Source: Eledone cirrhosa
Taxonomy: Eukaryota
Length of the DNA: 64,000 nucleotides
Reading direction: 5' to 3'
NCBI GenBank assembly: GCA_964016885.1
Contig: OZ024749.1
Coordinates: 3,348,001 to 3,412,000 of the forward strand
Shown: positions 14,929 to 51,322 of the stretch, piece after piece
Position numbering within the stretch: the stretch's first letter is position 1
How the letters are laid out: each line of letters begins with the position of its first letter
Notes under the pieces: generated by a model
What the model saw: only the letters and a program-made list of their open reading frames with translations
Database searches by the model: none
Told to the model about the DNA's origin: nothing
Translations under genes and position numbers: made by a program

Positions 14929-15920
14929 ATTAAGTTAAAAATGTACATCCACATATGTATACTGAAATACTAGTATGCATATGAATACACACACGTATAC
15001 ATATGTAGATGTACCGAGTTTTTCACTGGTCACTTTACTGTGAGTTTCCAGCTATTCTGTATGTAAACACACAGACAAACCGGTTTTTAGAGTCATACTG
15101 GTTTTTGAGGAAACACCTTTCCTCTATTCTCCAGAAAGCAAGACAAGGAATATTGAACTAGTTTCGATGTTGTTACATCTCATCAGCAATATTTACCTAT
15201 CTTCCGGCCTCTCTAGAGAATCGTAAAAGCACATATCGTTATATGCTTTTTCTATGAAAATTAGTAGTGGGCAGACTAATTTGCATAGAGCGTGAGTACG
15301 TACCGGTTCAACGGAGACGATAAAAACAAATAACGAAACGAAATTAAATTTCGTTTCGTTTGTAACTCACTTTTGTATGACTGACGCTTAAACAATTAAG
15401 TTAAAAATGTACATCCACATATGTATACTGAAATACTAGTATGCATATGAATACACACACGTATACATATGTAGATGTACCGAGTTTTTCACTGGTCACT
15501 TTACTGTGCGTGTCCAGCTATTCTGTATGTAAACACACAGACAAACCGGTTTTTAGAATCATACTGGTTTTTGAGGAAACACCTTTCCTCTATTCTCCAG
15601 AAAGCCAGACAAGGAATATTGAACTAGTTTCGATGTTGTTACATCTCATGAGAATAGAGGAAAGGTGTTTCCTAAAAAACCAGTATGACTCTAAAAACCG
15701 GTTTGTCTATGTGTTTACATACAGAATAGCTGGACACTCACAGTAAAGTGACCAGTGAAAAACTCAGTACATCTACATATGTATACGTGTGTGTATTCAT
15801 ATGCATACTAGTATTTCAGTATACATATGTGGATGTACATTTTTAACTTAATTGTTTAAGCGTCAGTCATACAAAAGTGAGTTACAAACGAAACGAAATT
15901 TAATTTCGTTTCGTTATTTG

Positions 15921-15922
<2 letters not shown>
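14929..15922 (-). mobile_element. Non-coding hammerhead-bearing retrozyme/Penelope pLTR-like insertion: about 1.5 tandem 466-bp units plus a ~270-bp inverted copy
   Basis: taagttaaaaatgtacatcc recurs at 14931 and 15397. The inverted copy spans 15650-15922. (TA)n lies on both sides. Confidence 0.85.
15149..15193 (-). ncRNA. Minimal type I hammerhead ribozyme
   Basis: Minus strand: AAUAUUG CUGAUGA GAUGU-AACA-ACAUC GAAA CUA GUU CAAUAUU. It has a 7-bp stem I, a 5-bp stem II and a palindromic stem III (ACUAGU). Confidence 0.9.
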
Positions 15923-49393: not shown

Positions 49394-49413
49394 CATACAT
49401 ATATACATATATA

Positions 49414-49444
<31 letters not shown>

Positions 49445-49948
49445 GTAAGAATATTTTCGAAACAGCGAGTGGGTTTGAAATTATTAGAAATGTAAGCTAT
49501 CGCCGTATTTTGACTAAAGAAATTAAAGAAATTATTTAGCCTGATAATGGGGATAAGAACCCGCGGAGAAATGGAAAAAGATGAGTATTGACGTGCATGG
49601 GAGTCGAACCCACATCTTTGTGTATCCGGACCACTGTGCTACCATTTACTTCAACACATCACTCGTCTTTTTCCATTCAAATTAGAAGCTATAAACTTAG
49701 CGACTGTAAGGTCAAGTAAGAATATTTTCGAAACAGCGAGTGGGTTTGAAATTATTAGAAATGTAAGTTATCGCCACATTTTGAACAAAAGAAATTAAAG
49801 AAATTATTTAGCCTGAAATTATTTCGACTCCCATGCACGTCAATACTCATCTTTTTCCATTTCTCCGAGGGTTCTTAACCCCACTAACAGGCTAAATAAT
49901 TTCTTTAATTTCTTTAGTCAAAATATGGCGATAACTTACATTTCTAAT

Positions 49949-49950
<2 letters not shown>
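49445..49950 (-). mobile_element. 271-bp tRNA-containing unit: about 1.4 tandem copies plus an inverted partial copy, in (TA)n
   Basis: gtaagaatattttcgaaacagcgag occurs at 49445 and 49716. The inverted copy spans 49824-49950. Confidence 0.85.
49589..49660 (-). ncRNA. tRNA-like cloverleaf (pseudo-tRNA, identity unclear)
   Basis: 72 nt. Acceptor stem GAUGUGU/GCACGUC, T arm GUGGG-UUCGACU-CCCAU, D-loop-like AAUGGUAGCAC. The D and anticodon stems are imperfect. A T5 run lies downstream. Confidence 0.75.
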
Positions 49951-49997
<47 letters not shown>

Positions 49998-49998
49998 T

Positions 49999-50529
49999 AT
50001 GCATCAACACGCATCACAACAAAACATGAATAGGCGTAAATCACAACCCATCCACATCTTACAAATCTGCAACGACGAACCTGCACAAAATAAAACCTCA
50101 AATTGTAATTGCCACCTACCTGATAAGTGCCCACTAGGGAATAGATGCCTGGATTCGAGTATGGTATACCTGTGTACTGTAAATTCAGGCAACTCTACTT
50201 GGCACTACATAGGTTCCACGACTGGGGAGTTCAATAAAAAGTGGTACGTCCATAGACACTCCATGAAGAACCGTAGACTGGAGAACTCTACGACGCTCGC
50301 CAATAAAATCTGGCAGCTTAAGGACAAATACCTAAAATATAAGATTAGCTGCTCAAAATTATCGGTAGCAAGAGACTACAGCAAGGGAATGTCCCACTGC
50401 GTGCTTTGTAATTTAGAACTACTACATATTTTAAGGTACAGTGGGATGCTGCTTAACAGCAAAATAGAAAGATCAATTTTCTGTAGGCATAAAAAAGCTA
50501 CTAGATTCACAAACTTGAAACCATCATGA
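49999..50529 (+). pseudogene. GIY-YIG endonuclease domain of a 5'-truncated Penelope-like element (Naiad-type)
   Basis: CNC...CPLGNRCL..MVY...YIGST...H..S...TTLA..IW...C.LC..E...LLNSK.E...CRHK. Confidence 0.85.
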
Positions 50530-51322
50530 TTTGAACCAGTAACCGCAACATTAGAACTGACACCTAAATTTTAACATATAGAATTAACACCATCGCACTG
50601 CTATTAGCTGTCGAACGGCCAACTGGTCTCTAGATCATAAATCTCTGAACATTTCTTTCACCCTCTCTCCCTGAAACAGCATCAACCCCATTAAGATAGA
50701 ACAATCAGCAAAACATTTACAACAAGCGTCTATCAAACGTCCCGTCATTCCTAGCCCATAAATCTCACACATGTATTCACCAATTAATCTCTAATTGATT
50801 GTATTTTCCTTTTATATGCCACTACATCTGGCCGTCTACACGTATCTATGTACATCTCGAATCTGGTTTCACATGTTAGCACTAAACCCACCCACGAATC
50901 CTTATAAGAACACTTACTCAAAAGCTACTACTAACATACGATGTACTGACACGCTCTCACATATTTCTTTCTTTATATTTTCCATTCTCTCATTTCCTTA
51001 TTTTTTAATGTACTCTATCTTATCTTTTTACTTTTTACATCTGTAACTTCTCTACATATTTACCATATATGTTTTATTATTGATATTATTATTTTGATTA
51101 TACACTATTTTTCTATATAACTCTTGCCTCGAGTGAATTATTTTCATATCGACGTACTCTGATGTGTTGACCAGAGGTAAATAATGTATTGGAGATCGAG
51201 TGACGAAACCTCAAGCGATTAGCGAACTCTAGACTCACCTGATAAAAGAAACAACTGTCAGTACATTAAATAAAGCCCCTTATTGTACAGCCAACCATGT
51301 TACTCTTCATTATTTAACTATA
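50530..51322 (+). mobile_element. 3' UTR/pLTR of the Penelope-like element, with a decayed long-stem-II hammerhead (51154-51264)
   Basis: GUACU CUGAUGu ... GAAA CAACU GUC AGUAC, then aataaa. Inverted homologues of this end lie at 46587-46660 and 47585-47675. Confidence 0.7.

Follow-up and report, generated by a model that had tools for sequence, protein, structure and literature searches.

SINEs are passengers of LINEs, and TRIMp3 elements are passengers of LTR elements. A similar role beside PLEs has been proposed for the animal non-LTR retrozymes, which according to the available text are non-coding, low-GC tandem units of 150–450 nt defined by a type I hammerhead (PMC7229834; bioRxiv 10.64898/2026.07.22.740005). 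As far as that text extends, no tRNA domain is described for retrozyme units, and "tRNA" occurs 0 times in preprint 10.64898/2026.07.22.740005; it is also absent from the supplement of PMC8557442. Endonuclease-bearing PLEs themselves are reported, in the sections available, to insert into (TA)n targets as partial tandems with an inverted 5'-truncated arm (PMC8557442), and in vitro to use two internal RT starts with a 30–40-nt tail (PMC11167929). tRNA-related parts are described for other elements, again in the text accessible: tRNA-derived SINEs carry a tRNA head with A and B boxes (PMC5786205; PMC10886601), and the schistosome elements Sm-alpha and Sj-alpha are tandem SINE-like units whose Pol III-type part is related to tRNA-Gln and which are cut by a hammerhead (PMC6765202; PMC2770079). 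Cassandra and Helenus, which are TRIMp3 and thus LTR elements with PBS, PPT and 4–5-bp TSDs, keep a small-RNA promoter inside the terminal repeat, and Cassandra RNA initiates in one repeat and terminates in the following one, which makes it terminally redundant (PMC10886601).

The 271-nt unit of Eledone cirrhosa described here resembles retrozymes in being a non-coding, low-GC tandem unit, but it has no hammerhead and contains a tRNA-like domain. Like endonuclease-bearing PLEs it shows (TA)n targets, partial tandems, an inverted arm and two RT starts; unlike them it has neither ORF nor hammerhead, and its sequence did not match the single PLE end with which it was compared. It shares the tRNA-like part and the tandem unit with Sm-alpha and Sj-alpha, for which the available text describes neither a clamp nor a PLE footprint. 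With Cassandra and Helenus it shares a repeat with a putative small-RNA promoter, but its ends are PLE-type in (TA)n, and LTRs, short TSDs, PBS and PPT, the last two judged by eye, were not seen. Copies that end at tRNA +1 resemble plain SINEs; in contrast to SINEs, the element has an internal RT start, a carried leader, tandem and head-to-head arms, and preserved cloverleaf stems with a clamp. By analogy, and within the text accessible, Cassandra can be regarded as its LTR analogue and Sm-alpha as its closest tandem precedent. On balance, we favor the view that it is a non-coding, PLE-mobilized family whose RNA starts at the tRNA-like domain and whose ends are held by the clamp helix.

The window analyzed is a stretch of 64,000 nt (contig OZ024749.1), and the unit, r1–r271, is numbered on its minus strand (r1 = window 49715, r271 = 49445). 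The features relevant to the layout are the following.

14929–15922, minus strand: 466-nt family that carries a hammerhead and has the same geometry, taken as control
49395–49444, no strand: (TA)n target, left side
49445–49715, minus strand: full 271-nt unit, r271 to r1, of the main arm; RNA 3' side at 49445
49445–49479, minus strand: 35-nt "tail" between the two inferred RT start sites, r236 and r271/r4 (arm-start counts, and PMC11167929 as available)
49716–49816, minus strand: partial upstream unit, r172–r271; tandem junction seamless
49823–49951, plus strand: inverted second arm, r108–r236, beginning at the inner reverse-transcription site
49953–50000, no strand: (TA)n target, right side
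50002–50529, plus strand: separate 5'-truncated PLE, outside the element, whose C-terminal GIY-YIG-type endonuclease runs to a stop

Repeat analysis of this copy gave a direct repeat with period 271. The main arm (49445–49816) measures 371 nt, or 1.37 units, the inverted arm (49823–49951) 129 nt, and both abut (TA)n. The first-pass annotation had described just this, about 1.4 tandem copies of a 271-bp unit plus an inverted partial copy in (TA)n, and was also right that the geometry is that of 14929–15922, where the 466-nt hammerhead family has an equal layout. A variant at r121 is common to both arms. Compared with the family, the copy has damage in its D and anticodon arms, and judging from its sequence it is probably a dead end, being too short to act as a source and carrying two A-box changes.

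Far from being single-copy, the unit is a young repeat family. Its 3' 25-mer has 1,290 exact matches in the genome and the 25-mer at tRNA +1 has 420, while 35 long segments from the best-scoring loci diverge from the majority by 2.0%. A DNA search of the 3.0-Gb genome with the unit returned 2,408 candidates, of which 40 were scored. For counts we used a position-based sample, the 90 loci around the first 100 listed matches on contig C1; after removal of two duplicates and of a copy that lacked a normal end, 87 insertions with 155 arms remained. At G000:C1:402660991-402661049 the match listing has two head-to-head matches to the +1 25-mer only 9 nt apart, so that both arms would end just upstream of +1. 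A second family came out of a D-arm motif search (1,488 candidates), alongside tRNA-Gln genes. This sister family lies 7.4% from its majority (29 copies), has 203 identities in 317 columns with the young family and, by its sequences, is the older of the two; it keeps the leader, cloverleaf, clamp and ends of the young family. Locus L249 combines a young-family body with a sister-family leader and T-loop, and is possibly an intermediate subfamily.

The footprint of the insertions is that of a PLE. Arms start at r270–r7 (87 of 155), r225–238 (48) or r213–220 (12), and two arms stand head-to-head in 68 of the 87 insertions; (TA)3 lies within 14 nt of 79 of 88 primary ends. The copies thus show two start sites 30–40 nt apart, partial tandems with an inverted 5'-truncated arm, and a (TA)n target. 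Around 30 arms carry r1–r4 beyond r271, indicating that the template continued past the start site, and 18% of variants are common to the segments of one insertion, compared to 2.6% between insertions (118/119 loci), which argues that both arms and the tandem units derive from one source. It is very likely that a PLE RT/endonuclease makes these insertions, and the tandem ends, inverted ends and TA targeting anticipated by the first-pass annotation are all present among the 87 C1 insertions. Its remark that SINE-type organization, with a tRNA head and a tail, is missing also holds for the genomic copies. Sixteen of the 87 insertions run past r51. Of the 25 that reach +1, only 9 end there as a simple-tailed monomer beginning at the tRNA would, and the other 16 run on into leader and tandem.

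For the adjoining endonuclease, the data bear out neither its first assignment nor a significance of its position. The frame at 50002–50529 is the end of an RT-EN ORF; in loci L051 and L053 it has RT motifs upstream and a stop following it. Naiad, the type to which it had been assigned, is defined in the available text by an endonuclease N-terminal to the RT (PMC8557442), and the label was dropped; Pfam gave no match for this frame, and the cysteine linker in its sequence makes Neptune a candidate reading. The unit is present in 1 of 30 endonuclease loci (the one described here) and an endonuclease in 2 of 30 element loci. Unit and neighbor have no common sequence, their adjacency is private to this locus, and the fragment is a chance neighbor through the shared (TA)n target. 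Comparison of the unit with the neighboring PLE end detected no similarity (719 of 1,000 shuffles score as high), nor was an end sequence shared with the unit found in the neighbor family or in six other, mostly truncated, PLE fragments. A TAC-TTT-AA-like motif was seen by eye at the inner start of three families; a single alignment test of it was not significant. The neighbor itself extends over 50002–51320 as a truncated PLE that has a 3' UTR and, near 51240, a minimal hammerhead-like motif in degenerate form. The protein search returned 56,704 candidates, and at least four other endonuclease types, 31–40% identical, occur in the flanks fetched.

As first reported, there is no CUGAnGA/GAAA core: the CUGAnGA motif is absent from both strands of the unit. 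Rfam, at E up to 10, found no known ribozyme on a dimer copy, and our own hammerhead descriptor found none in the unit; both detected the control hammerhead. Our HDV descriptor, which has no positive control, was also negative. The 271-nt unit therefore does not carry the type I hammerhead found in each unit of a non-LTR retrozyme. The control family of 466 nt, found at window 14929–15922 and at G000:C1:5738100-5752670, has 3,509 exact 28-mer matches, arrays of about 30 units and a 72-nt offset between its two start sites. Its arms have a median length of 499 nt, compared to 132 nt in the tRNA-bearing family. Its cut site was crossed 45 times (39 arms) without a single stop, and stops at r229–249 gave p 0.08. 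Another short repeat with a CUGAUGA...GAAA motif occurs at window 47359, 63242 and 63399 and is common in the fetched flanks.

The middle of the unit is occupied by a tRNA-like domain, with these features.

49689–49695, minus strand: TATA-like element, 29–35 nt upstream of tRNA +1
49661–49677, minus strand: clamp arm r39–r55, upstream in the DNA and predicted 3' end of the RNA; includes G52
49664, minus strand: G52, candidate start site inside that clamp arm
49589–49660, minus strand: tRNA-like cloverleaf r56–r127 (Rfam tRNA match; damaged in the window copy)
49642–49653, minus strand: A box, intact in the family majority, two changes in the window copy
49601–49609, minus strand: B box/T-loop with A58 (49604)
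49591–49605, minus strand: r111–125, family hot spot of 5' truncation (breakpoint counts)
49570–49586, minus strand: clamp arm r130–r146, holding T5 at 49575–49579, the sole T run of at least 4 in the unit

The 72-nt cloverleaf had been proposed at exactly the positions of the Rfam tRNA match, which is on the minus strand. The window copy scores 19.1 bits, under the cut-off of 29, and family copy L011 scores 33.3 bits. A functional tRNA gene was ruled out: the majority has C33 and U37 and thus a non-canonical anticodon loop, the loop differs between the young and sister families, and ARAGORN calls no tRNA within the 64-kb window. A relationship to tRNA-Gln is indicated by the D arm only, where tRNA-Gln genes and the sister family have an 18-nt motif in common; along all 72 nt there are 35–43 identities to tRNA-Gln, no closer than to other tRNA-like matches. 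A tRNA-Arg origin was abandoned after a pattern search gave nothing. At L237-L242 (G000:C1:168.2 Mb) a tRNA-Gln cluster contains repeated Gln-like genes whose anticodon, CUA, would read amber codons. A dispersed repeat at L171-L180 (e.g. G000:C5:99222941-99223013) carries a near-perfect tRNA about 305 bp inside (Rfam 53–72 bits, drifting anticodon), and its leader and trailer are partly complementary. It begins with TC and a hairpin, a start that we take to be Helentron-like, and as a different, non-tandem element it was rejected as a second family of the present kind.

The inverted repeat said to extend the acceptor stem by 17 bp exists, with 16 of 17 positions of 49661–49677 and 49570–49586 paired, although a 3-nt bulge sets it off from that stem. 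Such pairing arose in 2 of 20,000 trials with shuffled flanks, and for the unit permuted at tRNA +1 a clamp pairing probability of 0.93 was predicted. This folding, which treats the RNA as unmodified, supports the clamp and T stem and not the D and anticodon arms. The TATA 33 nt before +1 and the downstream T5, here placed within the 3' clamp arm, were also correctly noted. Together with the A and B boxes of the majority, the TATA at about -30 and the single T run of at least 4 would support transcription by Pol III.

The 5' breakpoints of the 87 insertions can be read as a map of RT stops, in which the background amounts to 0.0034 stops per nt. Positions +1 and +73 were predicted beforehand, and window widths were chosen after viewing the data. 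At r52–60, 10 of 33 arms stop (12-fold over background, p 3e-8; 9 of 25 at one arm per insertion), eight of the ten at r55–60 and two at r52. An RNA end explains this stop better than structure, since the pairing partners would already have been copied by then. Of the two RNA ends expected at +1 and +73, only the former is thus supported by the breakpoints. At the RNase Z site (+73, r126–131) 4 of 110 arms stop (p 0.18, not enriched) and no tRNA-only junction was found, which does not support RNase Z-type processing there. Indels at the predicted join, r44–62, were also not enriched (2 in 1,382 nt).

The strongest hot spot, r111–125, stops 63 of 106 arms (17-fold), and r137–146 stops 10 of 120 (2.6-fold). 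In later turns, where the counts include score-selected loci, 9 of 26 arms stop at clamp entry compared to 11 of 120 in the first turn, and 3 of 17 stop at the T arm; these differing stops suggest two template forms. According to the available text, T-loops of the GUUCRA type receive m1A58, which stalls RT (PMC6076376). The edge expected from a clean m1A58 stop is r113, whereas the observed edge is at r117, and A58 was free of misincorporation in 61 of 62 cases; folding of the T-loop is therefore as likely a cause as m1A58. Two copies skip the T arm exactly.

The sister family offers a natural comparison for these stops, its ends having been read by eye in 44 insertions that are older and partly overlap score-selected loci. 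There the r111–125 stop affects 3 of 35 arms versus 63 of 106 in the young family (p 5e-8), and all 22 T-loops read have no A58. Palindromes alone were rejected as the cause of the hot spot, because these palindromes also occur in the sister family, where the hot spot is missing. The r52–60 stop is retained (5 of 15, 6-fold, p 0.001). Across 18 rows 88% of clamp cells are paired, compared to 25–55% in slid controls, and covariation over these rows was not above shuffles. The outer clamp pair is A-U in 9 copies, U-A in 8 and mismatched in 1, a swap that, as judged from the aligned copies, is one compensatory event in one lineage. On contig C28, the piece from G52 to the T run forms a 92-nt satellite in three arrays within sister-family insertions, at G000:C28:105.81 Mb, 106.96-106.97 Mb and 113.14 Mb (L339, L341, L363-L367), of about 41, over 100 (by span) and about 6 copies. 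The arrays have different flanks and one common junction, which connects the T run with G52 and so brings together the points predicted as the ends of the RNA. This junction has a single origin; both ends lie in the clamp, and hairpin slippage is a possible source. The same junction was looked for in the young family, and none was found.

We propose that the element borrows a PLE RT/endonuclease, which would copy its RNA into (TA)n. The template RNA quite probably begins at r52–60, at or just before the tRNA, and with some caution it is reasonable to think that Pol III would initiate at that start. A source copy of at least about 1.3 units would allow RNA to read through the first T5 and to end at or near the tRNA or T5 of the next unit; 3 of the 87 insertions, roughly 3%, are long enough. 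This would place r1–55 on the RNA 3' side, behind the internal RT start. Whether r39–55 then pairs back on r130–146, bringing the 3' end beside the 5' end, we consider an even call. Trimming and ligation, or a template jump, would then let RT run on seamlessly and rebuild tandems without a ribozyme, and in the A58-bearing family a folded or m1A58-modified T-loop would stall RT. The tRNA, set mid-unit in the DNA and on that account contrasted with SINEs, would thus probably be the 5' head of the RNA, with the 3' end formed by the "upstream" clamp arm, as in a circularly permuted, PLE-mobilized SINE-like element.

RNase P cleavage at a tRNA-like fold is known for mascRNA. The fold could accordingly be a processing signal, with RNase P cutting host read-through tandem transcripts at +1 and the clamp closing 271-nt monomers. 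Since most start-site stops fall at r55–60, such trimming fits them as well as initiation does. The sister family is awkward for Pol III, because it amplified with a degenerate, non-canonical B box and three T runs of at least 4 (one in the young family), and the four stem differences between the tRNA parts of the two families are one-sided with pairing kept, which also suits a processing signal. Yet the two r52 ends and the G52 junction fall inside the leader, a paired leader would be expected to hinder RNase P, and the young family has intact boxes and a TATA at -30 and has lost T runs. We consider this account unlikely.

The other alternatives are weaker still. In one, a SINE-like element acquired a PLE-type end and uses linear templates, its tandems stemming from rare long sources or DNA duplication and its clamp masking the tRNA or terminator. 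In its favor, just 16 of the 155 arms extend over a full unit, compared to 20 of 39 in the hammerhead family, some long arrays carry subsets of shared variants, and the 92-nt satellite has spread locally, within a single contig. However, arrays should then become shorter with every generation, whereas arms as long as 752 and 824 nt are present, tandem junctions are seamless and the lineage includes copies of two ages, at 7.4% and 2% divergence from the majority, so that we hold it to be improbable. The equal geometry of the hammerhead family, and Sm-alpha with its Gln-type tRNA part and hammerhead in the text available, would also be compatible with an ordinary retrozyme having a Pol III promoter and a self-cleaving ribozyme of unknown class; with the searches negative where the control hammerhead was recognized, this is very improbable. 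Beyond the preferred reading of a PLE-mobilized family with a tRNA-like start and clamped ends, we entertain, more tentatively, that these are ribozyme-free retrozymes, tRNA mimics that would use Pol III, host tRNA enzymes and the clamp to obtain a circular or pseudo-circular PLE template. Their copies would be a fossil map of RT stops, recording where the RNA begins and a block that depends on A58, possibly in the form of m1A58, and that the sister family escaped by loss of A58.

No ribozyme-free, tRNA-headed PLE passenger was found in the literature searched; Repbase, Dfam, subscription papers, the retrozyme-preprint supplements and the O. vulgaris library (PMC13282606) lie outside that scope, and the family may be listed there under a different name. 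Families of this kind have probably been catalogued as tRNA pseudogenes or as unclassified SINEs. If true, PLEs too would have their passenger, one of the Pol III/tRNA type, and a third slot would be filled beside SINEs with LINEs and TRIMp3 with LTR elements. It also bears on how PLE-type elements regenerate tandem repeats and on the role of their hammerhead, and a ribozyme-free unit of 271 nt with mapped stops and a natural A58-less variant would make both questions testable in the published in vitro PLE assay.
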